The notes under the pieces were generated by a model. That model saw only the letters and a program-made list of their open reading frames with translations, made no database searches and was not told the origin of the DNA. A program made the position numbers and the translations under genes. A DNA stretch of 64,000 nt from Deltaproteobacteria bacterium. GTDB taxonomy: Bacteria > Desulfobacterota > GWC2-55-46 > UBA9637. Below are positions 3,251 to 32,954 of this stretch, piece after piece (position 1 is the first letter of the stretch; the number at the start of each line of letters is the position of its first letter). Location: contig JACRML010000031.1 of assembly GCA_016214995.1 (NCBI GenBank), positions 6,453 to 70,452 of the forward strand, read 5' to 3'.

Positions 3251-3958
3251 TTGAAAGTTTCCGTTGTTATACCGGTTTATAATGAAGCGCCGTTTGTAGA
3301 AAAGGTGATTGCGAGAGTTCTTGAAACCGGCATTCCGTATGAAATTATTATTGTGGATGATGGTTCCACCGACGGCACACGGGAAATACTGAAAGCAATG
3401 TTTGGAGATCGGACAACCGGCACCAACGGCAAGGTTCATATTTATTTTCAAGAAAAAAATATGGGCAAAGGGGCGGCGCTTCGGCGTGGACTTAAAGAAG
3501 TGTCCGGCGATGTCGTCATCATTCAGGATGCCGATCTTGAATACAGCCCTCGGGACTATCCCCAATTATTAGAGCCGATATTGAATGGCAGAGCCGATGT
3601 GGTATATGGCTCCCGCTTTGCCGGGGGAGAAGCGCATAGGGTTCTCTATTTCTGGCATATGGCGGGAAACAAATTGCTGACCTTGTTGTCTAATAAGTTG
3701 ACCAACATAAATCTTACTGATATGGAAACCTGCTATAAAGTTTTCAAAAAAGAGACACTTAACCGAATTGTCATAGTGGAAAATCGTTTCGGTTTTGAGC
3801 CGGAGATTACCGCAAAGGTGGCGCGATTGGGTGCAAGGATATATGAGGTGGGGATTTCCTATTCCGGAAGATCCTACAGCGAAGGGAAGAAAATTGGGTG
3901 GAAGGACGGATTTCGGACATTATACTGCATTCTCAAATATAATCTGATAAGGTTTTGA
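3251..3958 (+). CDS. Family 2 glycosyltransferase (polyprenyl-phosphate sugar synthase-like)
   Basis: 235 aa with a TTG start. VVIPVYNE, IIVDDGSTDGT and QDADLEY (GT-A DxD). Confidence 0.8.
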   Translation: MKVSVVIPVYNEAPFVEKVIARVLETGIPYEIIIVDDGSTDGTREILKAMFGDRTTGTNGKVHIYFQEKNMGKGAALRRGLKEVSGDVVIIQDADLEYSPRDYPQLLEPILNGRADVVYGSRFAGGEAHRVLYFWHMAGNKLLTLLSNKLTNINLTDMETCYKVFKKETLNRIVIVENRFGFEPEITAKVARLGARIYEVGISYSGRSYSEGKKIGWKDGFRTLYCILKYNLIRF

Positions 3959-3971
3959 GAATGTTTACTGT

Positions 3972-4472
3972 ATGTTCAGACGAAGTGTAAAATATATCAT
4001 CGGAATATTTCTGTTATCCATCTGGTTTGTGTCAAACATGTCGAGCTTTAAAGCAGAGGGCATAGTATGGGGGCAGATATTCTTTTCCAAAGAAAGCATT
4101 TTTAAAACATTTGCTGTTGAATATCCGCTGTATGATTTTCTCGGCAAGGTAGTTTCTCTCACCCCGGGAAACAGCGCCTTCTATTGTTTTAATCCGTTTG
4201 GAGAGGAAGGCGGTTTATATTATTTATATTATCCTGTTCTGGTTAAGTATTATCTTTATCCCAGAAAGGTAATTATGGTTAATCAAAGTGAAGAAGTGCG
4301 GATAGAAGAACTGCTCAAAAGCAACTATATATTATTCTATATCCCTTATAACTTTCCATTGGCTAAGATTGAATCCACAATTAACAGCTTACCTTTCGCA
4401 CAAAGAATTTATTGGTCTCATAATAGCGCATATCAGGCCATTTACAGTTTGCAAAAAAACGATATGAGGTAA
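3972..4472 (+). CDS. Hypothetical membrane-anchored protein
   Basis: 166 aa with an N-terminal hydrophobic helix. No motif recognised. Packed between the GT2 gene and a polytopic membrane protein. Confidence 0.55.
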   Translation: MFRRSVKYIIGIFLLSIWFVSNMSSFKAEGIVWGQIFFSKESIFKTFAVEYPLYDFLGKVVSLTPGNSAFYCFNPFGEEGGLYYLYYPVLVKYYLYPRKVIMVNQSEEVRIEELLKSNYILFYIPYNFPLAKIESTINSLPFAQRIYWSHNSAYQAIYSLQKNDMR

Positions 4473-4474
4473 TC

Positions 4475-5911
4475 ATGGAATTTTTATTGTTTACGGCGTC
4501 CATCTGCATATTTATTTTATCCGGCCTCATAGCGCTGAGCTACATAGAGAAGGGGGTGGCGCTGGGTTTTGGCATGTGGGCAAGACTGGCTGTTTCCTTT
4601 ATGCTGGGTCTTGGCATTATATCGATGCAGATGTTTATTTATACGATATTATCCATTCCCTTCAGCTTTTTTAATATAACCGTTATCTGGATTGTTTTGA
4701 CGACTTTCTCTTGTTTATCCCACGACAGGAGAAATTTGTTTTCCGCTCATTTCAAGGCGTTTGACATTTCCTGTTTTCACAACCTTAAATGGCATGATGT
4801 AATTCTGCTACTCATTGTTGTATTGCAGGTAATATACACATTTATGTGTGCATTTCTTATGCCTCTCAACGGATGGGACGCATTGGAAATATGGTTTCTC
4901 AAGGCCAGGGGATTTTTTATGGAAAAAAAGGTTTCGCCAGAATTTCTCCTAAACGCCTCCTCTCACGCTGATTATCCTCTTTTAATTCCTTTATCTGTTG
5001 CATGGATATATACCTCTATGGGCAAACTCAATGATCACATGGCAAAGGTTATGTATCCTCTGCAATATGTTTCACTGCTGATAATCTTCCATTATTTGTT
5101 AAAAAAAATTTCCTCTCGCAACAATGCGCTATTATTTACTACCCTTCTTTCGTTAACACCTATGCTTGTGCTTCATGCCGGTGGTTTCCCTGCAATGAGT
5201 GTGAACTTATTCGTTTATGATTACGTCGGGTATGCGGATATTACCTTGTCCATATATTTCATAAGTTTCTGCGGTTTCCTATATCTTTTCCTGCTGAATC
5301 AAAACTATTTGCTTCTTACAATAGCCGTTTTGTTTCTTGGAATGGGTGCGTGGACTAAAAATGAAGGATTGACATTTGCCTTGATTGGAGCATGTTTGAT
5401 TGCGCAATATCTTTCAGGGGAGCTAAAGCGGCGCCTTTTGACAATATCAGTTATTTTAGCTGTTTTTGTATTACCTTGGCTTGCTTATAGATTATATTTC
5501 GGCATACCAGGCGAATATTTTAGCAATCTGAATTTTTACGTAATCCTCGACAATATAAGTCGTTTATCGGTTATAGTAAATACGATGGGCAAATCTATGT
5601 TCGTAGATATAACGCTCTTCAGCTTCATATGGTATGGATATATATTGACATCACTCGTCAATTGGCGCGGTTTTCTTCACAGGCCGCTCTTTGTTTTACA
5701 AACAATGCTTTTATCGCAGTGTGCAATCTATATCTTTATATACATGATAAGTCCGCATGATATTGTTTGGCATCTTACTACCTCAGTAGATAGATTAATC
5801 TTCCACCTGACGCCGCTGGCTTTGTTCATTGCCGGTATCAATGTGTGGCAAAAAATTGAACCTGCTGATTTACAATCTAGAGCTTATTTTCCGGTAAGAC
5901 AAAATCTATGA
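4475..5911 (+). CDS. Polytopic membrane protein, possibly GT-C (ArnT/PMT-like) glycosyltransferase
   Basis: 478 aa with roughly a dozen hydrophobic segments. Function is inferred only from architecture and the GT2 neighbour. Confidence 0.5.
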   Translation: MEFLLFTASICIFILSGLIALSYIEKGVALGFGMWARLAVSFMLGLGIISMQMFIYTILSIPFSFFNITVIWIVLTTFSCLSHDRRNLFSAHFKAFDISCFHNLKWHDVILLLIVVLQVIYTFMCAFLMPLNGWDALEIWFLKARGFFMEKKVSPEFLLNASSHADYPLLIPLSVAWIYTSMGKLNDHMAKVMYPLQYVSLLIIFHYLLKKISSRNNALLFTTLLSLTPMLVLHAGGFPAMSVNLFVYDYVGYADITLSIYFISFCGFLYLFLLNQNYLLLTIAVLFLGMGAWTKNEGLTFALIGACLIAQYLSGELKRRLLTISVILAVFVLPWLAYRLYFGIPGEYFSNLNFYVILDNISRLSVIVNTMGKSMFVDITLFSFIWYGYILTSLVNWRGFLHRPLFVLQTMLLSQCAIYIFIYMISPHDIVWHLTTSVDRLIFHLTPLALFIAGINVWQKIEPADLQSRAYFPVRQNL

Positions 5912-5980
5912 GCATGACATTTAAAGAATTTCTTAAACAAAAAAAAGAGATTGACACAAGCAAGGTTGATCCTATGGATT

Positions 5981-6625
5981 TTATGGATGAGTATTATGAC
6001 GAATATATAGAATATCTGGCAAAGGTAAAAGACGGCTGCAGCCCAAAAGAGTAGCTATCTCGGCGGATAATATGGATAAATAATATGGATAATATGGATG
6101 ATAATATGGGTAAGGGGAATATGGATGGTACGGATAATATGGGTTGTATGGCTGATAAGGCCGCCACGGCTGAGGCGGTTCGTAAATTATTTCCGACTGT
6201 GGTTCAAAGATACGCATCTGCAATGGTTCCAGTACAGGGTAAACATAATCCATTTCTCCAATCTTCTGTATTGTTATGCCCTTGATTATGCCCGCAACAG
6301 TTATCTCCTTGCCTGCTTTATATAAAAAGGTGTCCAAATATATTGAACTATCTACAAGAAACCTGCCTTTAGAAAGTTCTTTGTCAATTACCATGTCTGC
6401 TCTGTCCAGAGGTGTTTGAAGCACTTCGATGACTGTTTTATCGGCAAGATTTTTTGATGATATAATTATTCCGCCCCAGATGACATTTTTACCTTTATAA
6501 GCGTTTGGGTTTGTCTGAACCATAGGTAAGGTTATGGTTCTGTCAATCTCGCGCCTTATATTTCCAGAGATAACAGAACAACCTGTTAAAAAAATCAAAA
6601 ATATGATAGAAAGTCTGTAGCTCAT
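5981..6625 (-). CDS. Slp-family outer-membrane lipoprotein with a Pro/Tyr-rich C-terminal extension
   Basis: Lipobox LTGC. Slp core NVIWGGIIISS, VIEVLQTPLD, GRFLV. The start at MSYRL is preferred over the ORF-track start at 6634. Confidence 0.7.
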   Translation of the reverse strand: MSYRLSIIFLIFLTGCSVISGNIRREIDRTITLPMVQTNPNAYKGKNVIWGGIIISSKNLADKTVIEVLQTPLDRADMVIDKELSKGRFLVDSSIYLDTFLYKAGKEITVAGIIKGITIQKIGEMDYVYPVLEPLQMRIFEPQSEIIYEPPQPWRPYQPYNPYYPYHPYSPYPYYHPYYPYYLSILSAEIATLLGCSRLLPLPDILYIRHNTHP

Positions 6626-6687
6626 ATAGAACATCTTATCTAATAAGGAGAAAATGTCAACCCTTTACAAGTTACCCAAAAATTGTC

Positions 6688-6789
6688 CGATAACGCAGTA
6701 TGGCAGCCAAATCGGCTGGCTCCACTTGCTGCGAAGCAATTGCAAGTGGAAGATGTAAAATAGCGAGGTTTTTAATCGCTACTTTACGG
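6688..6789 (+). repeat. Family A repeat, partial copy A4
   Basis: cgataacgcagtatggcagccaaatcggc, then the ccacttgctgcgaagcaattgcaagtgg hairpin, then the gtaaaatagcgaggtttttaatcgctactttac hairpin. Confidence 0.8.
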
Positions 6790-6820
6790 AATCATATGCT
6801 TTATATGACAAGGCAGTCCA

Positions 6821-6843
6821 GTGTTTTGCCATTGGCAAAACAC
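6821..6843. promoter_or_regulatory. Perfect 23-bp palindrome upstream of dgt (candidate operator)
   Basis: gtgttttgcca-t-tggcaaaacac, 11-bp arms, 20 bp upstream of the dgt start. Confidence 0.3.
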
Positions 6844-6862
6844 ATAATTTATTGAGGGTCAA

Positions 6863-8023
6863 ATGGTTATGAAAGAAATAATGACATCTGCTGATTTAGA
6901 GGCAAAGAAACTTGCACCACATGCAATGGCTAGCAAGAAGTCCAAAGGACGAAGATATAAGGAAGATGAACATCCCTTCAGGACAGCCTTTCAAAGGGAC
7001 AGGGACAGAATTATCCACTGCAATGCCTTCCGCAGGCTGGAATATAAAACCCAGGTCTTTGTGTATCATGAAGGCGATCACTACAGGACCCGCTTAACTC
7101 ACACAATAGAAGTGGCGCAGATAGCCAGAACCATTGCAAGGGCTCTCCGCCTGAATGAAGAATTGGCAGAGGCCATTGCTCTTGCCCACGACCTCGGTCA
7201 CCCGCCCTTTGGGCATACGGGGGAAAAGACTTTGGCTCAACTCATGAAAGGTCACGGCGGTTTTGAGCACAATCTCCACAGTTTAAGGATTGTAGAATAT
7301 CTTGAGAGGCGGTATCCCGGTTTTAAGGGTTTAAATCTGACATGGGAAGTAAGAGAAGGAATTGTAAAGCATTGCTCCGAACATGACAGCCCTGATGTGT
7401 TGAAGGAATATGAGCCTGAAAAAGCGCCCTGCCTTGAGGCGCAGATAGTTGATGTGGCAGACGAGATAGCATATAACAACCATGATATAGATGACGGCCT
7501 GTCTTCCGAGATGATTGATGTAGAGCAGTTGAAAGAGGTGCAACTCTGGCTGGACCATTATGAGAGGGTAAGGGAGGCCTTTCCAGGAGAGGAATTTAAG
7601 ATTCATAAATCTCAGACAATAATCCAGATAATAAACCAACAGGTTACAGACCTGATTGTGCAGATATCAAAAGAAATAGAAAAGAGGAAGATAGGCTCTG
7701 TTGAGGATATCAGGGATATCGGCGAACCCATAGCAAGATTCAGCCCTGATATGAATAAGAAAAACACAGAGTTAAAAAAGTTTCTCAAAAGGAATCTTTA
7801 CAGCCACCATAGGGTAATACGGATGGCGGATAAGGCAGACCGCATACTCAAGGCACTTTTTAAGGTTTATTCAGACGAGCCCAAGCTTCTTCCGCCCCAT
7901 GTATATGCTGAATTGGAAGAAAAGGGCAAAGAGCGGCTCATCTGCGACTACATTGCCGGCATGACTGACAGGTTTGTGCTTGATGAATATAAAAAGCTTT
8001 TTGACCCGTATGAGAGGGTATAG
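6863..8023 (+). CDS. dgt: dGTPase-like deoxynucleoside triphosphate triphosphohydrolase (HD domain)
   Basis: 386 aa. FQRDRDRIIH, FRRLEYKTQVF, RTRLTHTIEVAQIAR, HDLGHPPFGH. Confidence 0.85.
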   Translation: MVMKEIMTSADLEAKKLAPHAMASKKSKGRRYKEDEHPFRTAFQRDRDRIIHCNAFRRLEYKTQVFVYHEGDHYRTRLTHTIEVAQIARTIARALRLNEELAEAIALAHDLGHPPFGHTGEKTLAQLMKGHGGFEHNLHSLRIVEYLERRYPGFKGLNLTWEVREGIVKHCSEHDSPDVLKEYEPEKAPCLEAQIVDVADEIAYNNHDIDDGLSSEMIDVEQLKEVQLWLDHYERVREAFPGEEFKIHKSQTIIQIINQQVTDLIVQISKEIEKRKIGSVEDIRDIGEPIARFSPDMNKKNTELKKFLKRNLYSHHRVIRMADKADRILKALFKVYSDEPKLLPPHVYAELEEKGKERLICDYIAGMTDRFVLDEYKKLFDPYERV

Positions 8024-8114
8024 AGTTTGTATACAATATGAGTAGGTGCAGAGGTCTGGCACAGGTGACCAGAACAAGGAGTATCTGTATTTTGCCACAG
8101 TGCATAGCCGGCGT

Positions 8115-9227
8115 TTATTTGATTCCAGCTTTAGCAAAGATTTCCTTCAATACACTACGGACAATAGTCTCATAGCTTGAAAAAGATGTTCCTGAGAAAT
8201 TGCCATTAGCTATGATTTCGCCGCTATTTTCATCAATCCATTGCATATTAAATCTTAAAAGGGTGTAATAGAATCCATCCCAGGCATAATTATAGCTATA
8301 GGTAAGCAAAATCCTCCTGTTTTGTCTGGGCGTGGCAGCACTTTTTGGAGTGTCACTGTCATTGACTGCAATCAAGGCAGTGGCCTCTATCGCATCCTCC
8401 AGTGAAACCACATCCGATGTTTTGGTGTCTATTGATTTTCTGATATCATCATTAAATAGCGCTGCGGCGTAATTAATCTTTATTCCAAAATTCACATTTT
8501 GAGGAACGGTCCCTGTTTTTTTAAGCGTATATAAATCAGAAAGTTTTTCCGTTGCAATGCCTATTACATGAAATTTTTCATTTAAAATAGGCCCTCCGCT
8601 ATTTCCGGGTTGAATGGCAGCTGAAACCTGGAAACGTGTTGGATTATCCATGAGCCCTACATCGGCAGAGACTATACCCTCAGTGACCCTCGGATGTTTT
8701 CCCAATAAATCTATGAGTGGAAAACCTACTACTTTTATGTGGTCGCCAATTTTTACATTCTCACTCTGATCCAGCCGCATCCATTTGAGCACTTTTATAG
8801 GCTCAAGCGGCTTCAATATTGCAATGTCGTTTTCTTCGTCTATGATTATAACTCTGGACTTGAAACTCTCACCATCCACTTTTTTGATAATAATAGCAGA
8901 GGAATCCTTCACTACATGGAGATTGGAAATAAGCATGCCATCTTCAGAAATGAAGAATCCGCTTCCAAATGCTAGTGTCAGTTTTGGCTCGTGTTCCTGC
9001 ATCTTTTGATTAGAATGAAAAGTTTGGATGCTGAATCCCAGTTTACTCAGTTCTTCTGATATTATAGGGGCAACGCCTATCGGGTCGTTTTTGTTTGATA
9101 CAATAAAGGTCGTGTCCTTGGTTGTGATATTATCTGTGGTCACATAGGCAGTCATAGTGCAACCGTCAATTATTACCGTAGAAAAAAATAACAAAACGGC
9201 ACATACAAAACGCGACAACTCTTTCAT
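8115..9227 (-). CDS. Trypsin-like serine protease lipoprotein (S1C-like)
   Basis: Triad context SNLHVV, NDIAILK, GNSGGPILN. Lipoprotein signal ...VIIDGC if started at MKELS. The ORF track extends to 9299. Confidence 0.7.
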   Translation of the reverse strand: MKELSRFVCAVLLFFSTVIIDGCTMTAYVTTDNITTKDTTFIVSNKNDPIGVAPIISEELSKLGFSIQTFHSNQKMQEHEPKLTLAFGSGFFISEDGMLISNLHVVKDSSAIIIKKVDGESFKSRVIIIDEENDIAILKPLEPIKVLKWMRLDQSENVKIGDHIKVVGFPLIDLLGKHPRVTEGIVSADVGLMDNPTRFQVSAAIQPGNSGGPILNEKFHVIGIATEKLSDLYTLKKTGTVPQNVNFGIKINYAAALFNDDIRKSIDTKTSDVVSLEDAIEATALIAVNDSDTPKSAATPRQNRRILLTYSYNYAWDGFYYTLLRFNMQWIDENSGEIIANGNFSGTSFSSYETIVRSVLKEIFAKAGIK

Positions 9228-9295
9228 TATCAGGATGCCGCATTTATAGAGTCTGAAATCTGATATGGGATTTGCTGTTGTGCGAATCATAATAA

Positions 9296-9338
9296 TCAAA
9301 AAGAAAAGGGGCTAGCTAATATTATTTGCTAACCCCTT
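9296..9338 (-). terminator. Rho-independent terminator after tRNA-Phe
   Basis: Stem aaggggttagc/gctagcccctt (10 of 11 bp) followed on the minus strand by a T-rich run, cttttcttttt. Confidence 0.55.
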
Positions 9339-9346
9339 GATATTCA

Positions 9347-9422
<76 letters not shown>

Positions 9423-9552
9423 GTTAACTACGATTTGGAGTTGCTAGTTCGTAGCTCGGATAAAAAAGTATGTAAGTGTGATTTGTGTATTGTATGAATT
9501 ATAAGGTAATTTATACGAGTCCATTTTGTCAAGGTTTTTCTATTTTTTAACA

Positions 9553-10836
9553 TTATAATTCTTTAAATACCTTTTCTACGGCAGCCAGTGTTTTATTAAT
9601 GTCGTTTTTTGAATGCGCCAATGAAACAAACACTGCCTCAAACTGAGACGGAGCAAGATAGACGCCTGATTCCAGCATCTTCTTAAAGTATTTGGCAAAC
9701 CTTTCAAGGTTGCTTTTCTTGGCATCCTCATAATTATCAACCGGTCTGTCGTTAAAAAACAGCGTGAACATTGCGCCTGCCCGTGCAACCTGCACAGGAA
9801 TATTTTTTTTCCTTGCTATAGTTTCAAGACCATAGCACAGTTCTTTGCTGGTTTTCTCCAGCTTTTCATAAACCCCTTTGCCCTTTAATATCTTTAAAGT
9901 CTCTATGCCTGCAGTCATTGCAAGAGGATTGCCTGACAATGTCCCTGCCTGATAAACAGGGCCGGATGGCGCCAGCATCTCCATAATTTTCTTCTTTCCG
10001 CCGAATGCGCCGACAGGCAAACCTCCGCCAATTACCTGTCCGAGGCATGTCATATCAGGGTCAACATCATAAACCTTCTGCGCCCCGCCGTAGCAAAGCC
10101 TAAATCCGCTCATCACCTCATCCAGTATCAACACAATGCCGTATTGATTGCACATATCCCTGAGCGCCTTTAAAAAGCCGCTTTGTGGAAGCACAACACC
10201 CATATTGCCCGGCACACCTTCTACTATTATGCATGCCACTCCTTCAGGGTCATTTCTGAGAATATCCTCAACAGATGTAATATCATTATATATGGCTGTG
10301 TATGTATTTTTTGCAATATCCGCCGGAACCCCGGGGCTGTCCGGTACGCCGAGGGTTGCTGCGCCGCTACCTGCCTTTACAAGAAGGCCGTCACTGTGAC
10401 CGTGATAGCATCCTTCAAATTTTATTATCTTGTCTCTTTTCGTATATGCACGCGCAAGGCGGATAGCGCTCATTGTCGCCTCTGTGCCTGAGTTTACAAA
10501 ACGCACCATGTCCATAGTAGGAAACGCCTCAAGCACAAACCCTGCGAGGGTTACTTCAAGCTCTGTTGGCGCACCGTAGCTTGTTCCTCTGTCAACCGCC
10601 TTTTTCAAAGCAGCATTTACCTTTGGATGTGAATGGCCGAGGATTGCCGGCCCCCATGAGCCCACATAATCTATAAAGCAGTTGCCGTCTGCATCGTATA
10701 TCTTTGAGCCTTTGGCCTTTTTTATGAAGAGCGGATTTCCTCCCATTGCCTTGAATGCCCGCACAGGACTGTTCACGCCGCCGGGGATGATGCCCTGCGC
10801 CTTTTGCATGAGTTTTTTGGAATTGGTAGTGTTCAT
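9553..10836 (-). CDS. hemL: Glutamate-1-semialdehyde 2,1-aminomutase
   Basis: 427 aa. Class III aminotransferase with [10 protein letters not shown] and DEVMSGFR. N-terminus [10 protein letters not shown] is typical of HemL. Confidence 0.92.
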
Positions 10837-23040: not shown

Positions 23041-23829
23041 ATGAGCATATACGAAAAAATAGGGTGTCGGATTAAAATGCTTAGGGAAAAGACCGGCATG
23101 AGCCAGGATATGCTGTCACAGAAGATTGGAATATCACGGCCTGCTGTTTCCAAAATAGAGAGCGGTGAGCGGAAAATCTCCGCATACGAGTTGCAAAAGC
23201 TTTCTCATATTTTCCATGTTTCAGTGGACGATTTGTTGAATCCGGTAAAAGAGCCGGAGGTTCATTTGCATAAAGGCAAGGAAGGGAAAACAGCCAGGCC
23301 GCAAATGCGGATTAGCGTGCCGCAGAAGAATCTCCAGAAATTCAAGGAAATTCTGTTGTACATTTTGAATAAGGTCGGGGCCAAAGAGAACATCGGCGAA
23401 ACTGTCATCTATAAACTCCTCTATTTCATAGACTTTGACTTCTATGAAAAATATGAGGAGCAACTGATCGGCGCAACATACATCAAAAACAAATACGGCC
23501 CCACGCCTGTCGAGTTTGCCAAAATCGTAGAGAAAATGATTGAAGGCAAAGAGATAGAGAAGGTCAAAAGCGAATATTTCAATTTTCCGCAGACCAAGTA
23601 TTTGCCTTGTCGGAAGCCTGACCTGGCGAAATTGAAGGCGAACGAGATTGAGGTGATAGACGATGTCCTGAACCGGCTTTCGGAGATGAATGCGAGTCAG
23701 ATAAGCGCCTATTCCCATAGCGATGTTCCATGGGTGACAACGGCGGATGGCGAGGCTATCGAATACGAATCGGTCTTTTACCGCACTTTGCCCTATTCTG
23801 TGCGGGCATATGCGGAAGAGAACGGATGA
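23041..23829 (+). CDS. XRE-family HTH fused to a DUF4065 (SocA/Panacea-type) antitoxin domain
   Basis: N-terminus LREKTGMSQDMLSQKIGISRPAVSKIESGERK. C-terminus KLLYFIDFDFYEKYEEQLIGATYIKNKYGPTP... Confidence 0.75.
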   Translation: MSIYEKIGCRIKMLREKTGMSQDMLSQKIGISRPAVSKIESGERKISAYELQKLSHIFHVSVDDLLNPVKEPEVHLHKGKEGKTARPQMRISVPQKNLQKFKEILLYILNKVGAKENIGETVIYKLLYFIDFDFYEKYEEQLIGATYIKNKYGPTPVEFAKIVEKMIEGKEIEKVKSEYFNFPQTKYLPCRKPDLAKLKANEIEVIDDVLNRLSEMNASQISAYSHSDVPWVTTADGEAIEYESVFYRTLPYSVRAYAEENG

Positions 23830-24074
23830 GTGAGCCATTCTACAGTCCATTCGTTAGGACGCTGTTCAAGAAGATATCTCATGCCCCGGAATTTGAAAAA
23901 GACATGAAGAGGCTTAAGCGATTCTCATCGATAGAAGAGGATTTGCGGTGGAAGGGGATAGATTCAGCAGGGATGGGGAAGGGTAAAGGGGTTGGGGTTG
24001 CGAGGGGGAGGGGAATAGATCAGGCTCGTATTTTCTGTTTTAGCTATAGAATAAGTTGGTACTTTGATATATAG
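23826..24074 (+). pseudogene. Truncated RelE/ParE-like toxin, 3' part replaced by repeat R3a
   Basis: ATGA overlap with the upstream antitoxin. The first 37 or so codons (..FEKDMKRLKRFSSIEEDL) resemble RelE/ParE N-termini. From about 23953 the frame reads through G-rich repeat sequence (GMGKGKGVGVARGRG). Confidence 0.5.
23953..24014 (+). repeat. G-rich post-toxin repeat R3, partial copy R3a
   Basis: Matches the 3' half of R3b and R3c: cagcaggga.ggggaagggtaaaggggttg.ggttgcgaggg. Confidence 0.8.
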
Positions 24075-24080
24075 TGAAAG

Positions 24081-24161
24081 CAATAAATAACTTGTAGGGC
24101 AAGCCTTCAGGCTTGCTTATTTGCAGGGCTAAAGCCCTGCCCTACACCAAGTTATTTATTG
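24081..24161. other. 81-nt three-way-junction palindrome
   Basis: Perfect 14-bp outer stem caataaataacttg/caagttatttattg. 6-bp tagggc/gcccta stem. Two inner hairpins, aagcc..ggctt and cagggc..gccctg. Confidence 0.7.
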
Positions 24162-24209
24162 CCGTTAGTATAGAATAGAGAAAAAATTAATAATGTAGGG
24201 GGGATTTAT

Positions 24210-24395
24210 ATGAGAACCGCGGCACAAAAAGTTAATCCAGAGGATTTTATCCTTTCTGCCCTTTCTCCAGAGGATCGGCTCGATGCGGCATTTGAGGTCG
24301 CTCGTGAGGCGTTCAAAAAGACACGCTTGACAATGAAAGATATTGACAATGCGGTTAAATCGGTAAGGAGAAAGGCTTACGAAAAGAAGAAATAA
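24210..24395 (+). CDS. Small putative antitoxin of the downstream PIN toxin
   Basis: 61 aa. No family firmly recognised. Position and size fit a type II antitoxin. Confidence 0.5.
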   Translation: MRTAAQKVNPEDFILSALSPEDRLDAAFEVAREAFKKTRLTMKDIDNAVKSVRRKAYEKKK

Positions 24396-24414
24396 AGTAG
24401 TCATAGACACAAGC

Positions 24415-24801
24415 GTGCTTATTTCTGCCTACGCCTTTGGTGGAACACCGGAGAAGGCTGTAAAGAAGGCGTTCTCAGAGGCAGACATATATTTAACCCC
24501 CGACCTTTTAAAGGAATACCGTGATGTCCCTTTGGCGCTTGAGGCAGAGGGAAAGATTAACCACCTGCAATTTAAGACCTTGATTTCAGGGATGGCAGCC
24601 GTTGTATCAAGAGCCGAGATTGTAAATCCAAAAAGAAAAATCCTGATATGTAGAGACCCGAAGGACGATATGTTGCTTGACTGTTGCATTGAAGCAAAGG
24701 CAGATTTTCTTGTCACAGGCGATGCTGACCTTCTTAATATCGCAGAATTGCCGTTTAATTTAAGGATAGTAACTCCACTCAAATTTCTCGAAGAAGGGTA
24801 G
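24415..24801 (+). CDS. PIN-family toxin (PIN_3/TIGR00305-like)
   Basis: DPKDDMLLDCCIEAKADFLVTGDADLL is the typical C-terminal PIN_3 motif. The conserved VVIDTSV segment is encoded in frame upstream of the first canonical start (GTG 24415). Confidence 0.75.
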   Translation: MLISAYAFGGTPEKAVKKAFSEADIYLTPDLLKEYRDVPLALEAEGKINHLQFKTLISGMAAVVSRAEIVNPKRKILICRDPKDDMLLDCCIEAKADFLVTGDADLLNIAELPFNLRIVTPLKFLEEG

Positions 24802-24814
24802 TCTATTCCCACCG

Positions 24815-24948
24815 GATGTAAAAACGATGAATGAAGAGGGCAATCGTAGGGTGGGCATTGCCCACCGGATGAGGAAGATAGAAGGGCTGATGGAGAGGTT
24901 CAGCAGGGACGGTGAAGGGTAAAGGGGTTGTGATTGCAAGAGGTGGGG
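24815..24948 (+). repeat. G-rich post-toxin repeat R3b
   Basis: Roughly 85 percent identical by eye to R3c over about 135 bp. Contains the ggtgggcattgcccacc palindrome and a G-run tract. Starts about 13 nt after the PIN stop. Confidence 0.85.
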
Positions 24949-24996
24949 AAATAAATGAGTCCGCTTCTTCAAAAAAAAGCTAAGTGGAGGTATTTG

Positions 24997-25266
24997 ATGA
25001 AAATAGTAAGCGAACACATAGACAAGATTGTAGCAATCGGCAAGCGGTATGGCGCTACCCGTCTGATATTGTTCGGGGGAGTGGTCGCAAGATCGGAAAA
25101 TACAAGAGATATTGATATAGCATGCGATGGCATCCCAGGCTGGAAGCTTTATGAATTTGCAGCAAGACTTGAAGAGGAGCTGCATATTCCTCTCGATGTA
25201 ATGCCGCTCAGCCCTCCGAGTCGTTTTACAAAATACATTGAGATGAAAGGCAAGGCGCTCATATGA
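24997..25266 (+). CDS. Nucleotidyltransferase-domain antitoxin (MntA-like)
   Basis: LILFGGVVARSENTRDIDIA (GG..x..DxD NTase signature). GGAGG lies 6 nt upstream of ATG 24997. ATGA overlap with the HEPN gene. Confidence 0.75.
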   Translation: MKIVSEHIDKIVAIGKRYGATRLILFGGVVARSENTRDIDIACDGIPGWKLYEFAARLEEELHIPLDVMPLSPPSRFTKYIEMKGKALI

Positions 25267-25736
25267 ATCTGAAAGACCTTTGCGAGGAAATTGCCATTGA
25301 GATTGAGCTTCTCGAATCCGTCATCAAAGAAATATCTTCCCTGCGCAACGACTTAACGGAGCGTGAGCCAACTATCAGGGAAAAAACAGCCGCAGGCGCC
25401 TTTATGGCACAATTTTACGGAGGGATTGAAAACATTTTGAAACGGATCAGCTTGTTCCACTCTGTTCCAATGCCTTCCGGCGACAACTGGCACACAGATC
25501 TTTTCCGAAGATTTTGCCAACCATCTTACCAAACCCTGCCTCTATTATTTAAGGAACAACTGGCCTTAGACATGGCCGCATTTCGTAAATTCAGGCATGT
25601 TGTTTATCACGGCTACGGTTTTGAACTTGACTGGGACAGGATGAAAGAAGGGTTGGCAAGAATTGATGATGTATTTAACCGTTTTAAACAGAAACTTAAC
25701 GAATATCTAAATGGGTTAGAAAAACAGAATAAATAG
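25263..25736 (+). CDS. HEPN-domain toxin (HepT-like)
   Basis: 157 aa. Rx4-6H motif in FRKFRHVVYHGYG. Paired with the MNT gene. Confidence 0.7.
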   Translation: MNLKDLCEEIAIEIELLESVIKEISSLRNDLTEREPTIREKTAAGAFMAQFYGGIENILKRISLFHSVPMPSGDNWHTDLFRRFCQPSYQTLPLLFKEQLALDMAAFRKFRHVVYHGYGFELDWDRMKEGLARIDDVFNRFKQKLNEYLNGLEKQNK

Positions 25737-26017: not shown

Positions 26018-29000
26018 ATGCCTGAACAAATGGATACTACCTGCAAAAAACCTCAGCCTGCTTTACTTGAAGATGTCTGGATAACATCAGGCATTTTTTC
26101 AAACCATTATCTATTAGAACGTCTGCCGCAGGCTGGAGCAAAAATCTGGCATAAAGATGAGGATGTACTGCCAGTATATAAAACCATTCAGGAATTATAC
26201 ACGAAAAATATTGTAGGTTTGAGAAGAGGTAATGAGGCAAATACCGAAAGGCGATTTATTGATAAGGTTTTTAATGAATTGGGTTTTGGCTATCTTAATC
26301 AGGATAAAATACCTGAAGCAGAGCGCAGACAGGTGCCTGATTACTTTCTTTACTCTACCCCCGAAGGTGCAGACAATGCCTTCAAACTCTCTCCGCATAA
26401 AAAATACAAACTTGCAATCTCAATTGTAGAATCAAAACGGTGGGATCATAATTTAGACCAGCCGTCATCAGGCAAGGGCAAGGCAACTAAAGGCGGGTAT
26501 CCGCATCAGCAGATAAGGGATTATCTAAACGAATCCGAACACATAAAATGGGGAATCCTTACCAATGGCAAGGAGTGGAGGCTCTATTCCAAAGAGGGGC
26601 GGTCAAGCAAATTTTTTGAGATAGACCTTGAGGCATGTCTTGAAGACCTTCAGAAGTTCAAATATTTCTATCTCCTTTTCAGCCCAAATGCCTTCATAAA
26701 GGAAAGTTCCGGCAGATGTCTCCTTGACAATATTTTTGACGAATCACTTAAGTTTCAGGAAGATGTTGAAAAAGACCTAAGAGTAAAGGTCTTTAACTGT
26801 GTTGAACGGCTTGGGTACGGCTTCCTGTCCAGAGAGGAAAACCGTTTATCTGAAAAAGACCTTGAATCAATATACTATCACAGCCTTATCCTTTTATATA
26901 GAATACTCTTTGTGCTTAATGCAGAGGCAAGAGACCTCCTTCCAACTAACCCACAAACAAATTACTACAAGCATTACGGCATCCAGAGGATAAAGGATAG
27001 GGTTAGGCATGGGAAAGGAGAATTTATAAGTGCCAAAACAGTTTTGTATGATGATTTATCAGCCCTTTTTCATCTGATAAACGGCAGCAATGAAAAACTC
27101 AATAGAGATATGAACATACCAAGATATAACGGCGGTCTTTTTGACCCTGATAAATATAAATTCCTTGAAGAAAAGAAGGCAGGAGACGATGTTCTTTCAG
27201 AGATAATTTATGAACTCTCCAACCGCACTGATAAAAATGGAGATGTCCATAGCATTGACTACAAAGGGCTTGGAGAGAGACATCTTGGAACAGTTTATGA
27301 AGGTTTGCTTGAACATAAGTTTAGTTTCGATAATGGTAAAGTAGTTCTTGAAAATGACAAAGGCGAACGAAAGGCTACAGGGGCATACTATACACCTGAC
27401 CATATTGTTAAGTATATCGTTGAAAATACGCTAGTGCCAATTATAAAGAAAATTGATGAAGAACTTTACCCCACTTTGAAAAAGGGGGGCGTGGGGGGAT
27501 TTTCAAAAGACGACTTTTTTGCCCAGGAAGTGCTGAACCTTAATATCTGCGACCCTGCGATGGGTTCAGGGCATTTCCTTGTCGAGGCTGTTCAATATCT
27601 TGCTGATGAGATTGCCTATCATCCCACAACACAGTTAAAGACGTCAAAAGGCGAAACAGAAGATGAAATTAACTATTGGAAGCGTAAGGTTGTAGAGTCC
27701 TGCATTTATGGAGTTGACATAAAAGAACTTGCAGTTGAACTTGCAAAACTCTCCTTATGGCTTAAGACAGTTGACAAAAGCCAGCCGCTAAATTTCTTAG
27801 ACCATCATCTCAGATGCGGCAATTCGCTTATCGGCGCAAGGATAGCCGACTTAAATTATCTGCCGCGGTCAAAGGGAAAGCAGAAAAAGACAGAGGAGAA
27901 TGAAAGCCAGTTGGTGCTTTTTGATAGAACCCGATTTAAAGAAGACATTACAACAGTAATAAAAGGATTTTATTCAATAGAAGAAATGCCGAGCGAAAAA
28001 ATTTCGGATATAAAGGCAAAGGAAAAGACATTCAAAAAATTGACCGAAGAACTGAATAGATACAGAGAAATTACAGACCTCTGGACAAGTTTGTTTTTTG
28101 GAAACAGCCTTGAACAAGAACAAGAGGCATTTGAAAACATTATACAAGAGCAGGATAAATTCCAGATGGATATATTCGGCTCAGAAACTAAAATCTCCCC
28201 CAAAAAGAAGTCCAAGGCAGGCATATCCAACCAGATTTACAATTTTATAGTTAGTTCACTACAAAGTCCTAACGGCAAAACCCAAGTTCCAAAACTTGAC
28301 TTGCTTCTTGGGAAGTCTGTATCCATTGCAAGGGAAAAGAAATTCTTTCACTGGGAACTTGCATTTCCTGAAGTATTCTTCAATGAAGACGGAAGTCCAA
28401 AAGAGAATCCGGGGTTTGATTGCGTAATAGGAAATCCGCCGTATGATGTTTTATCAGAACTTGAGCAGGAGAGGGATGTAGAGCATGAGAAAGAATTTTT
28501 CTTGCATCAGATGTCGTATAGACCTGCCATTGGCAGCAAACTTAATTTTTATCGCCTCTTTAGTGTCACATCTTTAAATTTACTCAAAAGCAAAGGTATG
28601 CATGGTTTTATCGTTCCTATGGCTTTATTAGCAGATAAACAAGCAAAGCCCTTGAGAGAATTTATACTTAAAAAGAACTGCCTGCAAAAGATAGAAGCAT
28701 TTCCCCAAAAAGATGACCCTGTAAACAGGGTATTTTATGAGGCAAAGTTATCAACCTGCATATATATCCTTTCTAAGCAAAAGCCATTTTCGTTTGATGT
28801 TAGAATCCATCCCGGAAAAGACATCTTGGAAACCTCTACTCGTTTAACCATAATGCCATCTCAAATTGAAGAATTTGACAAAGAAAATTTAAGTATTCCA
28901 TGTTATCCAAATATGACCGCAGAGGATTTTAAACTTGCCTTGAAATTAAACGAAGTTTCTAACGGAATTACACTCGGATACTTTGCGCCATCACAGCAGG

Positions 29001-29959
29001 GCGAGGTTAATCTTACAGCACACTCTGAATATTTGACAAATTCAGAAAAAGGACAAATTATTTTACGAGGTGCTCATATAAATCGTTATGAGTTTAAGGA
29101 AGAACCAAAACAAGGGAGTCCGATGTATCTTGATATTCAGCGATTCCTTGATGCACATGGAGAAGATACAAAAGCATTTGACCACAGGCACATACGCATC
29201 GGTTATCAAAGAGGGGCAGCAATAGACAATTGGCGCAGAATTATTGCAACTGTCATAGAAAAAGATAATTTCTGCTCCGATACAATCAACTATATTGTCA
29301 ATCCTAAAGAATATAGTCTGTTTTCCATTCTTGCATTATTAAATTCATCGCTATGGGAGTGGAGATTCAGGCTTACAAGCACAAACAATCATGTAAATTC
29401 TTATGAAATAGACTCAATGCCAATGCCAGTTATCTCCTTCACCACTCCCCCCAAAAGGGCGGAAGAATTTTTTAAGGATGCTGTTGAACTGTATGATGAT
29501 TCAAAATATGTTGATATTTTCAAATGGGCGGATTATGCATTGGATTTGGGCAGGAATGATACCATTCACGACTTCCTTGCCTATCTTGCAGAGCAGATAA
29601 TTGAGTTAAACAAGGCGAAGAATGAAGAGAGCAAAGGCTTTCTCAAATGGCTTGAAAGGGAAATCGGTACAGGAATTGATGCCTTAACAAACAAAACTGC
29701 AATCAAAGAATATCACGAACACGGCTTTGATCATCTCCTTGAAGTCCTCAAAAAGAACATAAACATAATCTCAATTGACCCTTCAGACCGAAAGAAACAG
29801 GAACTCGTTGAAAAGCATTTCACAAAAAGCATGTCAGTCCTTGAGCCTCTGAAAGAAAAAATTAAGGCGGCCGATAATCTGATAGACCAGATTATTTATA
29901 AGTTGTATGGATTGACGGAGGAGGAGATTGAGATTGTGGAGGGGAAAGTGACTTTATGA
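26018..29959 (+). CDS. Type IIG/IIL-like fused restriction endonuclease and N6-adenine DNA methyltransferase (Eco57I family)
   Basis: 1313 aa. N-terminal PD-ExK (VPDYFLY...IVESKRW), GAYYTPDHIV, SAM motif I DPAMGSGHFLVEA, motif IV GNPPY. TaqI-C-like TRD (LLNSSLWEWRF). C-terminal YKLYGLTEEEIEIVEG. Confidence 0.85.
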   Translation: MPEQMDTTCKKPQPALLEDVWITSGIFSNHYLLERLPQAGAKIWHKDEDVLPVYKTIQELYTKNIVGLRRGNEANTERRFIDKVFNELGFGYLNQDKIPEAERRQVPDYFLYSTPEGADNAFKLSPHKKYKLAISIVESKRWDHNLDQPSSGKGKATKGGYPHQQIRDYLNESEHIKWGILTNGKEWRLYSKEGRSSKFFEIDLEACLEDLQKFKYFYLLFSPNAFIKESSGRCLLDNIFDESLKFQEDVEKDLRVKVFNCVERLGYGFLSREENRLSEKDLESIYYHSLILLYRILFVLNAEARDLLPTNPQTNYYKHYGIQRIKDRVRHGKGEFISAKTVLYDDLSALFHLINGSNEKLNRDMNIPRYNGGLFDPDKYKFLEEKKAGDDVLSEIIYELSNRTDKNGDVHSIDYKGLGERHLGTVYEGLLEHKFSFDNGKVVLENDKGERKATGAYYTPDHIVKYIVENTLVPIIKKIDEELYPTLKKGGVGGFSKDDFFAQEVLNLNICDPAMGSGHFLVEAVQYLADEIAYHPTTQLKTSKGETEDEINYWKRKVVESCIYGVDIKELAVELAKLSLWLKTVDKSQPLNFLDHHLRCGNSLIGARIADLNYLPRSKGKQKKTEENESQLVLFDRTRFKEDITTVIKGFYSIEEMPSEKISDIKAKEKTFKKLTEELNRYREITDLWTSLFFGNSLEQEQEAFENIIQEQDKFQMDIFGSETKISPKKKSKAGISNQIYNFIVSSLQSPNGKTQVPKLDLLLGKSVSIAREKKFFHWELAFPEVFFNEDGSPKENPGFDCVIGNPPYDVLSELEQERDVEHEKEFFLHQMSYRPAIGSKLNFYRLFSVTSLNLLKSKGMHGFIVPMALLADKQAKPLREFILKKNCLQKIEAFPQKDDPVNRVFYEAKLSTCIYILSKQKPFSFDVRIHPGKDILETSTRLTIMPSQIEEFDKENLSIPCYPNMTAEDFKLALKLNEVSNGITLGYFAPSQQGEVNLTAHSEYLTNSEKGQIILRGAHINRYEFKEEPKQGSPMYLDIQRFLDAHGEDTKAFDHRHIRIGYQRGAAIDNWRRIIATVIEKDNFCSDTINYIVNPKEYSLFSILALLNSSLWEWRFRLTSTNNHVNSYEIDSMPMPVISFTTPPKRAEEFFKDAVELYDDSKYVDIFKWADYALDLGRNDTIHDFLAYLAEQIIELNKAKNEESKGFLKWLEREIGTGIDALTNKTAIKEYHEHGFDHLLEVLKKNINIISIDPSDRKKQELVEKHFTKSMSVLEPLKEKIKAADNLIDQIIYKLYGLTEEEIEIVEGKVTL

Positions 29960-32481
29960 ATTTTGAACGACCGCAACCCTTACATAAAAATATTGAAGTC
30001 AAAGCAACCAATAGGCCCATTAAAATTGCTTACCTTGTTCCATATGAAGAAAGTATAACTACACATAGGATACTTGATGCGGTTTTCCATGAATCATATA
30101 CCCGCTGGGGTGGTGTTCATACATTAATTATTCCTACTAATAGCAACAGTTTTTTGTTGGAAGAATACGATAAGTGGCTGCAATTTTATGACCCTGATTT
30201 TATTTATACATATGTTGATTTAGAACAGTCAGTGATTGCAAAAATAGATCACGCTTGTTGTCCTATCGCATTCATAAGTCACAAAAAATCAGAAATAACC
30301 CGATGGCAGGATTACATACCCGACTGGGGGGTATATTTCAAATCGATTTCATCGCTAACAACAATACATAGCCCATATGCTGGTTATCGTAGCCTACTAC
30401 CGTGGACTGAAAAAGAACAGAAAATAACACTTATTACCCAATACAAAGAAATTTCTGAAGAGCGTTTTATCGCTGATAACTTTGGAACTGCCTTTAATTT
30501 ACATATGTATCCTAACCCTATACAAGGGCTTTTTGATACTCTCTGTTTAGTGCCAAATGATTTGGGTAAGCATATGCATGTAGGTACTACAAAAACCACC
30601 TCAATTATAGATATACTTTCTCAAATAAGCGGCAAAAAAGCTATTATGATTGCAAAACTATCAATGGCTTACAGCAAATCTATATGCTGTGTGCAATCTT
30701 ATAGGTGGGATAGTTTCAACCTCTTTGTTGGAGATACTTGTCTTGATCGAATTCATTTCTGGAATGCAAGAAGTTTTTCTCCGGATTATATCAACGTGCC
30801 AGCCGCACTTATTGTAAAAAAGATACAGATAGAAGAATCAGATTTTATTACTCAGCTAGGCTTGTATCTAAATAGTCATAATTTTTTAGGGCAACATACT
30901 GGCCAGGCTTCAGTAGCAATAAGGAGCTTTAGCCACAACATTGAAGAACTCAAGCCGATACAAGAGAGATTACAAAAATGCACCTTCAATCGTGTGATTT
31001 TAACAAATGAATATAATAACCCTGCAATTCCATCTACCGACGATTTCAAACACTATTATCATAGTGGGTCTGCAGATGTAACGACATTTAAGTTAAGCGA
31101 AACTATTAATAAAATACAGGCGAAGGAGCCCGAACATTTTGCGTTCACTCCACCACGATTTAGAGGAATAAATGAAGGTCAGTGGATTGTCGAGCTTGAA
31201 ATTGAACGCCACAATAGCCTTTCTCGTGTTGTCAATGTTGCTGATACTTGGATGCCGCCACGGCGTCATAAAGCAGTAAGAGCATTTACTAAAAATTTGG
31301 GGAGGATTTCAAAAAACCATAGAATTTCTCTTATACCATCAACAGATAACCATCCATTATTGAGTAGCCCAATTAAAAAGGACTACTCATACTCCCTCTT
31401 TTTGCCGGATGATGAAACTTTTTTTCGATGGTTCGCCATCGATGCGGTTAATTATCTAAAAGAAGATTTACGGTCTTCACTTTCCTATGACCTATACAAT
31501 GGTTTGTCTGTCTCCGATAAAGGGCAAAATTTAAGAGGTGTAATTTCTATGTTTGGCAATCTTTCTGATGCATCTGAATGCTTGACCAATAAGTTTTGGC
31601 GTCAGATTATAAGAGCAAACAAGAGCAAGGTGGATGATGAAAAAGATGCCCAAAGACCAGATAATATTTTCAGTTGGGATAAATTGTTCTCTTTTATACC
31701 AAATGACCATAAATTTAAAGAGCAGCTACGGAAAAAATTACGCATTGGAAACAGGTTTAAAATACATGATTACTTGGTTGCAGACTTCAATGACGCGTTG
31801 GAATTTCTGATTAACAAAAAAGTTTTCTATCAGGTGCATCAGTGGAGGTGTTCATATTGCGGGCATACAAATACGCTTACCTTTGATCATATTAAAAGAA
31901 CAAATAATTGTGAGATTTGTGATAAGGAATATTTTGCACCGATTGATATTGAGTGGAAGTATAAACTTAATGACTTTGTATATAAATCATTATGTGAGCG
32001 TAACGGACTGACTGTTTTGTGGGCGTTGGGTCATTTACAAGAACGGGATGTGCATAGCAGTTTTTATTACCTTCCAGAAGTTAATTTGTTTTTAGAACAT
32101 AATAATTCAGAGAAAAAGCATGAAATAGATATTTTATGCATGATAGGTGGAAAGTTTTATGCTGTAGAAGCTAAATTTAGTTCAACCGGTTTTACTAAGA
32201 AACATGATGAGATTGAAAAGTTCATTAAGAAAATCTCATTAATCAGACCCGATGTCGCTCTATTAGCATTTGAACAGTATTGTGAACCTGAAGCTGATAC
32301 GGAGTCTGCCAAGAAGGATTTGAAAGGAGTGGTTGCAGATATATCTCAGAAAATAGGGGAGCAAATAAAAATTGAAACGGTAGTTGCATCTGATTTCGAA
32401 GAATTTAATGAGTATCCTGTTGATTTAGGTTGTTGGGGCAAACGTGTTTTAAAGATGCTTTATAAACTCGACAGCAAATAA
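29956..32481 (+). CDS. Uncharacterised 841-aa protein with a C-terminal zinc ribbon and PD-(D/E)xK-like nuclease signature
   Basis: ATGA overlap with the methyltransferase stop. CSYC-x16-CEIC at aa 632-655. HEIDILCMIGGKFYAVEAK at aa 722-740 (E-x-D...E-x-K). No Walker A or other motif recognised in aa 1-630. Confidence 0.8.
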   Translation: MNFERPQPLHKNIEVKATNRPIKIAYLVPYEESITTHRILDAVFHESYTRWGGVHTLIIPTNSNSFLLEEYDKWLQFYDPDFIYTYVDLEQSVIAKIDHACCPIAFISHKKSEITRWQDYIPDWGVYFKSISSLTTIHSPYAGYRSLLPWTEKEQKITLITQYKEISEERFIADNFGTAFNLHMYPNPIQGLFDTLCLVPNDLGKHMHVGTTKTTSIIDILSQISGKKAIMIAKLSMAYSKSICCVQSYRWDSFNLFVGDTCLDRIHFWNARSFSPDYINVPAALIVKKIQIEESDFITQLGLYLNSHNFLGQHTGQASVAIRSFSHNIEELKPIQERLQKCTFNRVILTNEYNNPAIPSTDDFKHYYHSGSADVTTFKLSETINKIQAKEPEHFAFTPPRFRGINEGQWIVELEIERHNSLSRVVNVADTWMPPRRHKAVRAFTKNLGRISKNHRISLIPSTDNHPLLSSPIKKDYSYSLFLPDDETFFRWFAIDAVNYLKEDLRSSLSYDLYNGLSVSDKGQNLRGVISMFGNLSDASECLTNKFWRQIIRANKSKVDDEKDAQRPDNIFSWDKLFSFIPNDHKFKEQLRKKLRIGNRFKIHDYLVADFNDALEFLINKKVFYQVHQWRCSYCGHTNTLTFDHIKRTNNCEICDKEYFAPIDIEWKYKLNDFVYKSLCERNGLTVLWALGHLQERDVHSSFYYLPEVNLFLEHNNSEKKHEIDILCMIGGKFYAVEAKFSSTGFTKKHDEIEKFIKKISLIRPDVALLAFEQYCEPEADTESAKKDLKGVVADISQKIGEQIKIETVVASDFEEFNEYPVDLGCWGKRVLKMLYKLDSK

Positions 32482-32561: not shown

Positions 32562-32954
32562 TTGACCAAAAAAACTCAAAAACTTTTAGATGAGTTAAGA
32601 GTCTTGCCTGCTGAAACCGAATGGGTATGGTTTAATAGGAAGTTGAGAAATGAGCGGCATTTCCAGATTTATAACTTTGATGACGGTCAACCGATTGAGC
32701 CTGACTTTGTTCTATTTCTCAAAAAGAAAGATTCGGATATTTCACTGCACTATCAAGTGTTCATTGAACCGAAAGGTGAGCACCTTTTAAAATATGACGA
32801 ATGGAAAGAGAACTTTTTAAAATCATTGAAAAAGAAGCATCAGATAAATATATTATGGAAATCAAAAAAATACACTGTATGGGGAATGCCTTTCTATAAT
32901 GAGGCGTTAAAGAAAACCGAATTTGAAGATGAATTCAGGGCTGCACTGTTATAG
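32562..32954 (+). pseudogene. Remnant of the C-terminal nuclease domain of a type III-restriction-like helicase/endonuclease
   Basis: 130 aa with a TTG start. W.WFNRK...F.I.Y...G..IEPDFVLFL...QVFIEPKGEHL is the PD-ExK tail normally found at the end of roughly 900-aa ResIII helicases. No helicase part is present. Confidence 0.5.

Follow-up and report, generated by a model that had tools for sequence, protein, structure and literature searches.

A 64,000-nucleotide (nt) stretch of contig JACRML010000031.1 from a Deltaproteobacteria bacterium (GenBank assembly GCA_016214995.1, positions 6,453 to 70,452; here called the window) carries an open reading frame (ORF) at nt 29956 to 32481 of the forward strand that encodes an 841-amino-acid (aa) protein, P0001. 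The protein belongs to an unnamed family whose members are roughly 830 to 870 aa long. We propose that it is a stand-alone, horizontally mobile sensor-nuclease with a zinc-ribbon PD-(D/E)xK C-terminus of the Can2/Card1 type, probably serving in defense, and we put the probability of this reading at about 0.6. An initial annotation, made from the sequence alone, had described a C4 zinc ribbon and, after it, a PD-(D/E)xK domain of the restriction-endonuclease type, and the fold model, residue conservation, and structure search all agree with that description.

The ORF is divided into an N-terminal module (aa 1 to 622, nt 29956 to 31821), delimited by the secondary structure of an AlphaFold2 model, a C4 zinc ribbon (aa 623 to 662, nt 31822 to 31941), and a PD-(D/E)xK nuclease domain (aa 663 to 812, nt 31942 to 32391), all on the forward strand. 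The two CxxC knuckles of the ribbon (C632/C635 and C652/C655) lie in the peptide WRCSYCGHTNTLTFDHIKRTNNCEICDKEY, which a position check placed at aa 630 to 659. The initial annotation had set the limits of this peptide at aa 631 to 658, one residue out at either end, while its placement of the four cysteines at nt 31849 to 31920 was exact. The catalytic strands lie in KKHEIDILCMIGGKFYAVEAKFSS (aa 720 to 743, nt 32113 to 32184), where E723-I-D725 (nt 32122 to 32130, forward strand) is found on strand β2 and E738-A-K740 (nt 32167 to 32175, forward strand), the ExK of the catalytic motif, on strand β3. D725, the predicted metal-binding aspartate, is separated from E738 by twelve residues. The ExD...ExK signature had been proposed for nt 32122 to 32175, and both this span from E723 to K740 and the residue numbers D725, E738, and K740 proved correct by position check.

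These residues are conserved in the alignments that were made. Among 39 members sharing 44 to 76% identity (alignment A1), the four cysteines, E708, E723, D725, E738, and K740 are all invariant. In 38 superfamily members reaching down to 21% identity (A2), C632, C635, C652, C655, D725, and E738 remain invariant and K740 is kept in at least 90%; a lack of conservation among homologs, which the annotation had named as refuting its assignment, was not seen. An alignment of the C-terminus only (A4, 27 sequences) gave the same conservation, with the consensus (E/D)-h-D-h-h ... E-h-K; it also showed that E708 is kept in the closer subfamily only and that the lysine is lost in one distant member. D725 is invariant throughout the alignments. 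Conservation of the ribbon and nuclease residues against a mean column identity of 29% is not due to chance.

AlphaFold2 models were obtained for the full-length protein from the 39-sequence alignment (mean predicted local distance difference test score [pLDDT], 80.3; predicted template modeling score [pTM], 0.79) and for the C-terminal 222 residues from 64 sequences (pLDDT, 90), and the layout of the shorter model agrees with that of the longer one. In both, the CxxC knuckles sit at hairpin turns among four short β-strands with pLDDT values of 94 to 97; C632/C635 follow the strand at 624 to 631, and C652/C655 follow the strand at 649 to 651. In these models the four-strand, double-CxxC unit is a classical zinc ribbon that is predicted to bind zinc, and its marginal profile matches were to S27e, Elf1, and RNA polymerase zinc ribbons. 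The ribbon is followed by helices at 673 to 697 (including one at 684 to 697), β1 at 703 to 712, β2 at 722 to 730, β3 at 733 to 742, a helix at 750 to 763, β4 at 767 to 774, a helix at 779 to 800, and β5 at 805 to 810. The α-β-β-β-α-β core of restriction endonucleases, a four-stranded mixed sheet between flanking helices that the initial annotation had named as the fold to be expected, is therefore present in the model; in both models E723 and D725 lie on β2, and E738 and K740 lie on β3. With this fold, the conserved motif, and likeness to established members, the C-terminus is a member of the PD-(D/E)xK superfamily and a predicted nuclease.

The assignment of the nuclease to a particular branch of that superfamily came from structure and profile searches. 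Confident Foldseek matches were exclusively to PD-(D/E)xK nucleases. For the full-length model searched against the Protein Data Bank (PDB), the top matches were VC1899 (1xmx, probability 0.99) and Can2 (8bao, probability 0.99; 8q42 and 7bdv), with further matches to EcoT38I, OkrAI, McrC, Can1, BamHI, and XPF. For the C-terminal model, the top match was AF1548 (1y88; E = 9.7e-4, probability 1.0, template modeling [TM] score of 0.41 on the target), accompanied by Can2 (8q3y, 1.0), VC1899 (1xmx, 0.99), and Cdn1 (9u49, 0.99), and also by RecU, McrC, and the Avs4 nuclease (probability 0.9). SfsA, XPF, and Bax1 were returned as well, and in the BFVD viral library the match, to proteins annotated as "restriction endonuclease" and to DUF2726 proteins, was confined to the nuclease domain. 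The Can2/Card1-type Foldseek matches have probabilities of 0.96 to 1.0 but TM-scores of only 0.2 to 0.4. When the C-terminal profile was compared with PDB sequences, Can2 (8bao_A, "DUF1887 family protein") was the sole significant match (E = 7.2e-4). This match spans only ~48 residues around the catalytic strands, and it aligns the family consensus aeiDllcvldGkliivEvkss with NEIDCIVNLGNKILFVECKSH, catalytic motif on catalytic motif, so that E723-I-D725 pairs with the EID motif and E738-A-K740 with the ExK motif of Can2. PADLOC returned weak but recurring matches to CARF_PDDEXK models and to Csx1 "CARF+nuclease"; the latter (E = 2.5e-6) covers residues 581 to 761 and model positions 119 to 267 only, that is, the linker and nuclease.

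Together, the structure matches and the Can2 sequence-profile match place the nuclease nearest to the Can2/Card1 type: among PD-(D/E)xK domains, those of Can2, Card1 (VC1899), Cdn1, and AF1548 are probably its closest kin. NERD, YraN, and Hjc, to whose pattern and β-strand spacing the initial annotation had matched the signature, belong to the same superfamily and have a similar ExD...ExK spacing, but they are more distant than Can2/Card1. The NERD profile (PF08378) did not match P0001, and 2 of 39 members matched at E = 0.04, far below the gathering score. The DUF4263 (Shedu), Cap4, and YraN profiles, to which comparison had likewise been recommended, gave no match to P0001 at E ≤ 1 in Pfam or PADLOC. 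Neither Hjc nor YraN matched by sequence or appeared among the top structures in the C-terminal Foldseek search.

Can2, Card1/VC1899, and Cdn1 are DUF1887 CARF-PD-(D/E)xK ancillary nucleases of type III CRISPR. In their structures (8bao, 8q3y, 7bdv, 1xmx, and 9u49), the C-terminal PD-(D/E)xK domain shares the hEID...hhhEhK catalytic strands with the 841-aa protein, and a regulatory module lies N-terminal of the nuclease, as a putative one does here. CARF measures ~150 to 200 aa, whereas the module here is ~620 aa long with five sub-domains and no detected CARF; a C4 zinc ribbon is inserted ahead of the nuclease; and the gene stands alone, without the type III CRISPR link (no Cas10 above the cut-off in nine carrier genomes). 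AF1548, an uncharacterized archaeal restriction-endonuclease-like protein of 184 aa with 15% identity to the 841-aa protein, has neither the zinc ribbon nor the large N-terminal module. A likeness in logic is to the nuclease-STAND proteins of the Avs type and to Shedu SduA, in which a PD-(D/E)xK effector and a large sensing or regulating part are likewise joined in one gene found in variable islands; unlike these, the 841-aa protein has no STAND/NTPase module, no DUF4263, and no PADLOC model that recognizes it, and its nuclease is C-terminal. We rate it as a PD-(D/E)xK effector fused, in one gene, to a putative control module without a known relative.

That module consists of about five units by the secondary structure of the AlphaFold2 model: a Rossmann-like α/β unit (aa 13 to 108), a mixed unit, a second Rossmann-like unit (aa 254 to 348), a β-rich unit (aa 351 to 484), and a helical unit (aa 485 to 622). 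The first unit equals the catalytic strands in conservation, with a peak at aa 41 to 60. Because the module sits in front of the nuclease, we infer that it is a sensor or regulator. A whole-protein profile compared with PDB sequences returned a marginal zinc-ribbon match alone and no relative of the N-terminus, and no internal duplication was found by hhalign between six sub-domains. None of the 49 family members examined matched CARF in Pfam, and no CARF or SAVED profile matched over the N-terminus. Foldseek searches of PDB and BFVD gave no confident match to the module; low-probability matches to Spt6, nitrogenase MoFe protein, histidinol dehydrogenase, periplasmic-binding/LacI-type proteins, a GT41 enzyme, and the PARP9 macrodomain (probability 0.72) were set aside and not built upon.

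The family is large. A collection of 5.8 billion proteins contained 193 full-length homologs of ~830 aa, none of which (0/193) carries a Pfam domain. When 1.84 billion cluster representatives were searched by profile, 1,408 clusters (50% identity) reached E ≤ 1e-3 and 399 reached E ≤ 1e-30; nearly all of these are 800 to 870 aa long and are matched end to end. Pfam, NCBIfam, and PHROGs gave no family match for P0001 and up to 49 of its relatives, and no account of the family was retrieved by full-text literature search. Its nuclease and ribbon are known kinds of domain; the complete protein family is undescribed in the libraries and literature searched.

Homologs were examined in 22 distinct loci other than the window, 19 by ORF clustering and 3 by single inspection. 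The carriers are scattered over Nitrospirota-like metagenome-assembled genomes (MAGs), Desulfobacteria, Desulfobacteraceae, Thermodesulfobacteriota, Sulfuritalea, Rhodocyclaceae, Xanthomonadales, Luteimonas, Stenotrophomonas, Dyella, Legionella, and one Methanobacterium MAG, and the gene was found in none of 60 genomes related to that of the window. No neighbor recurs across the 19 clustered loci, and the three further loci give the same picture. The Legionella copies are each split into two ORFs (L. erythra, locus L017, 9986 to 12172; L. drozanskii, L019, 9986 to 12240) and are probably decaying pseudogenes. Locus inspection showed defense or mobile-element contexts in the window and in eight other loci: integrases in L011, L013, and L016; TniQ in L018; a resolvase and a primase-polymerase in L003; SIR2-like, HNH, and prophage genes in L002; HicAB in L006; and type III Mod and Res genes, as a pair, in L009. 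GC content in the window is 0.36 to 0.38 at the gene and 0.36 to 0.40 when its neighbors are included, compared with 0.42 to 0.45 in the flanks; together they form an island between hflX/ubiE-like and dinB/glyA genes. These variable, island-like, mobile-element contexts make defense against phages or plasmids the most likely role.

The family gene had no cas neighbors in the annotated loci, and in nine carrier genomes no Cas10 (Csm1 or Cmr2) passed the cut-off, on which latter ground a dependence on type III CRISPR was rejected. As a separate observation, contig C82 of the genome that contains the window has a 1,055-aa ORF with a weak Csm1/Cas10 match at 86795 to 87094 (18.7 bits, E = 5e-4). 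The match covers the first 80 model positions, in the HD region, and the ORF may encode either a diverged form of Cas10 or some HD protein unrelated to it.

Under the sensor-nuclease reading, the last ~220 residues would form a C4 zinc ribbon packed against a PD-(D/E)xK domain that is catalytically intact by motif. The fold and the conserved residues suggest that D725, E738, and K740, aided by E723, would bind Mg2+ or Mn2+ and cut the nucleic acid backbone, and that the ribbon probably serves to stabilize or anchor the nuclease or to place it on nucleic acid. The 620-residue N-terminal module would sense a cue or select a target and gate the nuclease as CARF does in Can2. The gene would work alone, with no partner gene supplying a signal, in a defense against phages or plasmids. 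Such a defense might act abortively or in the manner of restriction, a type IV-like variant among the options. In the window, the gene would have landed in a variable cargo slot 3' of a self-sufficient type IIG gene and be co-transcribed with it.

This neighbor, a 1,313-aa type IIG-like restriction-modification (RM) enzyme (nt 26018 to 29959, forward strand), carries P107-D108...E138-x-K140 (nt 26336 to 26437), DPAMGSG and NPPY motifs, and a TaqI_C target-recognition domain. Its library matches are Eco57I, N6_Mtase, and TaqI_C in Pfam and DrmMI and REase_MTase_IIG in PADLOC. The initial annotation had stated that the methyltransferase carries its own PD-ExK, which was confirmed in 18 homologs: P107-D108-Y109 and K140 do not vary, and at least 90% keep E138. 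Type IIG enzymes of the Eco57I/MmeI type and the 841-aa protein thus share the possession of PD-ExK centers, and the families are unrelated. The methyltransferase gene ends, and the 841-aa gene starts, within a shared ATGA (nt 29956 to 29959, forward strand) with a GGAGG ~14 nt upstream, and no terminator was found between the genes; judging from these sequence features, the two are almost certainly co-transcribed in this genome.

It is conceivable that the 841-aa protein is a dedicated, translationally coupled partner of the type IIG enzyme, the two forming one restriction system with two nuclease centers; in a variant, the 841-aa protein would provide second-strand cleavage or an extra restriction activity held in check by the methyltransferase. 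The stop/start overlap and the lack of a detected terminator would fit such a pairing, as would the intact catalytic motifs of both proteins, the low GC content of both genes, and the fact that a second family member, in L009, overlaps a type III Mod gene. We consider it improbable. A relative of the methyltransferase was found within 10 kb in 0 of the 22 other family loci, including those of the closest homologs, P0004 and P0006 (71 to 72% identity), and the 841-aa gene was found in 0 of 22 loci of close methyltransferase relatives, up to 92% identical, which hold unrelated defense cargo instead. The type IIG enzyme, having nuclease, methyltransferase, and target-recognition domains already, needs no partner. 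A dedicated methyltransferase linkage as a general rule was rejected on the counts from either side, and the earlier statement that the operon encodes two putative nuclease centers holds for this genome, where the overlap is present and both motifs are intact, but is not supported as a general pairing. We read the adjacency as an incidental stacking of two independent systems. Somewhat better placed, although still unlikely, is a type IV-like, modification-dependent endonuclease, a special case of defense in which modified phage DNA would be recognized by the N-terminus and cleaved by the PD-(D/E)xK domain. The layout, one gene whose large N-terminus is free of NTPase motifs and precedes a C-terminal PD-(D/E)xK domain, resembles the Mrr/MspJI type; RM genes adjoin in the window and in L009, and the Foldseek matches extend to McrC, the Avs4 Mrr-like domain, and the viral "restriction endonuclease" models. 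However, Pfam scans and Foldseek gave no sign of an SRA, winged-helix, or DUF262 domain or of any other module known to read modifications, and the nearest relatives of the nuclease, Can2 and Card1, are signal gated rather than modification dependent.

Those same relatives raise the idea of a second-messenger effector that works in trans and is switched on by cyclic oligoadenylates or another nucleotide signal that is produced elsewhere in the genome and bound at the Rossmann-like domains. The proximity of the nuclease to Can2, Card1, and Cdn1, the PADLOC matches to CARF_PDDEXK models, and the Rossmann-like α/β units of the N-terminus all speak for it. Yet the PADLOC match is limited to the linker and nuclease part, and since Cas10 was missing above the cut-off from the nine carriers, no CARF or SAVED profile matched the N-terminus, and no cyclase or CRISPR gene adjoins the family loci, activation by cyclic oligoadenylates is unlikely; we give this explanation the least weight of all. 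Nearly as doubtful is a function outside defense, either as a nuclease of DNA repair or recombination or in the maintenance or addiction of integrative elements. Integrases, TniQ, a resolvase, and a DnaE2-like polymerase are among the neighbors, some loci are purely housekeeping in context, and RecU, SfsA, XPF, and Bax1 are among the Foldseek matches. Against this stand an extremely patchy occurrence (0 of 60 relatives), the lack of a conserved repair-gene neighbor at the family loci, decaying Legionella copies that fit a dispensable accessory gene, and a slot in the window that is otherwise filled by defense systems.

Several observations weigh against the proposed sensor-nuclease itself. Its role is described as probably defensive on the basis of genomic context, and L004, L022, and a 41-kb contig have housekeeping surroundings with no defense gene nearby. 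No PADLOC model recognizes the 841-aa protein, the same is true of PHROGs, and no copy of the family was found in IMG/VR with the patterns used. The TM-scores of the C-terminal model to known nucleases are modest (0.35 to 0.41), since nothing in those nucleases corresponds to the ribbon and the extra helices. With neither a ligand nor a fold relative for the N-terminal module, the word "sensor" is a guess. Finally, this gene overlaps the methyltransferase gene by 4 nt and the L009 copy overlaps a type III Mod gene in a similar way, which leaves room for what may be a functional tie to DNA methylation. The sequence observation is firm and concerns a large family that has no name, yet the proposed function is drawn from genomic context.

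A more specific form of the sensor-nuclease proposal is offered tentatively. The family may constitute a new class of single-protein immune sensor-nucleases in which the ~620-residue, five-domain module recognizes an infection cue directly, be it a phage protein, a small molecule, or nucleic acid that is modified or foreign, and releases the zinc-ribbon-anchored Can2-type nuclease without a partner gene and without an NTPase. Public data hold ~1,400 clusters of this 830- to 870-aa architecture for which Pfam, NCBIfam, PADLOC, and PHROGs have no model. If the protein is a defense nuclease, it adds a widespread single-gene system in which a Can2/Card1-type nuclease is detached from CRISPR signaling; a CRISPR-ancillary effector domain would then have been reused outside CRISPR under a different control module.

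Type III RM genes were found near the family gene in more than one place. In L009 (Thermodesulfobacteriota MAG, 3621 to 9924), the stop codon of the family gene overlaps the start of a type III-like Mod gene (6209 to 8185); the reading frame of this Mod gene is broken close to the 3' end, and a Res-like helicase with GTGKT and DEAH motifs comes next. In L017 (Legionella erythra), a fragment of a similar Mod lies 1.7 kb upstream of the family gene. In the window, a 130-aa remnant resembling the C-terminus of type III Res (nt 32562 to 32954, forward strand; PADLOC REase_III, E = 4.5e-11, model positions 766 to 855 of 873) lies 80 nt downstream of the 841-aa gene. These neighbors may reflect a recurrent type III RM neighborhood or mere stacking in islands. 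In a Rhodocyclaceae MAG (L001/L015, 6967 to 10041), a 1,024-aa Trans_reg_C-AAA_16-TPR protein precedes the family gene with an ~40-nt overlap, and this STAND-like regulator could be a local partner.

The island in the window also holds a YgjP-like gene and, just upstream of the type IIG gene (nt 23041 to 25736), modules of the toxin-antitoxin type: HTH-Panacea (23041 to 23829), PIN (24415 to 24801), and HepT (25263 to 25736), the last with a small ORF upstream (24955 to 25266).

Homologs of the type IIG gene with 78 to 92% identity are followed by other genes directly 3', often overlapping or at a very short gap. PDC-M41A/M30A-like genes occupy this position in L024/L031, L028, L033, L037, and L038/L039; Gabija GajA and GajB in L027; pAgo and Aga_SIR2 in L025; and PDC-S01 in L035, the last being found upstream instead in L026. 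Elsewhere the position is taken by small uncharacterized proteins of 242 aa (L026), 354 aa (L032), 274 aa (L036), and 316 aa (L040). This variety indicates a variable defense-cargo slot, of which the 841-aa gene is one occupant. The small occupants are candidate defense genes, and the slot offers a convenient site at which to search for others. Several close type IIG homologs, 1,420 to 1,510 aa long (P0286 to P0290, P0299, P0301, P0303, P0372, and P0379), carry an extra C-terminal Fic domain (PF02661), and such a fusion of restriction-modification with Fic is unusual.

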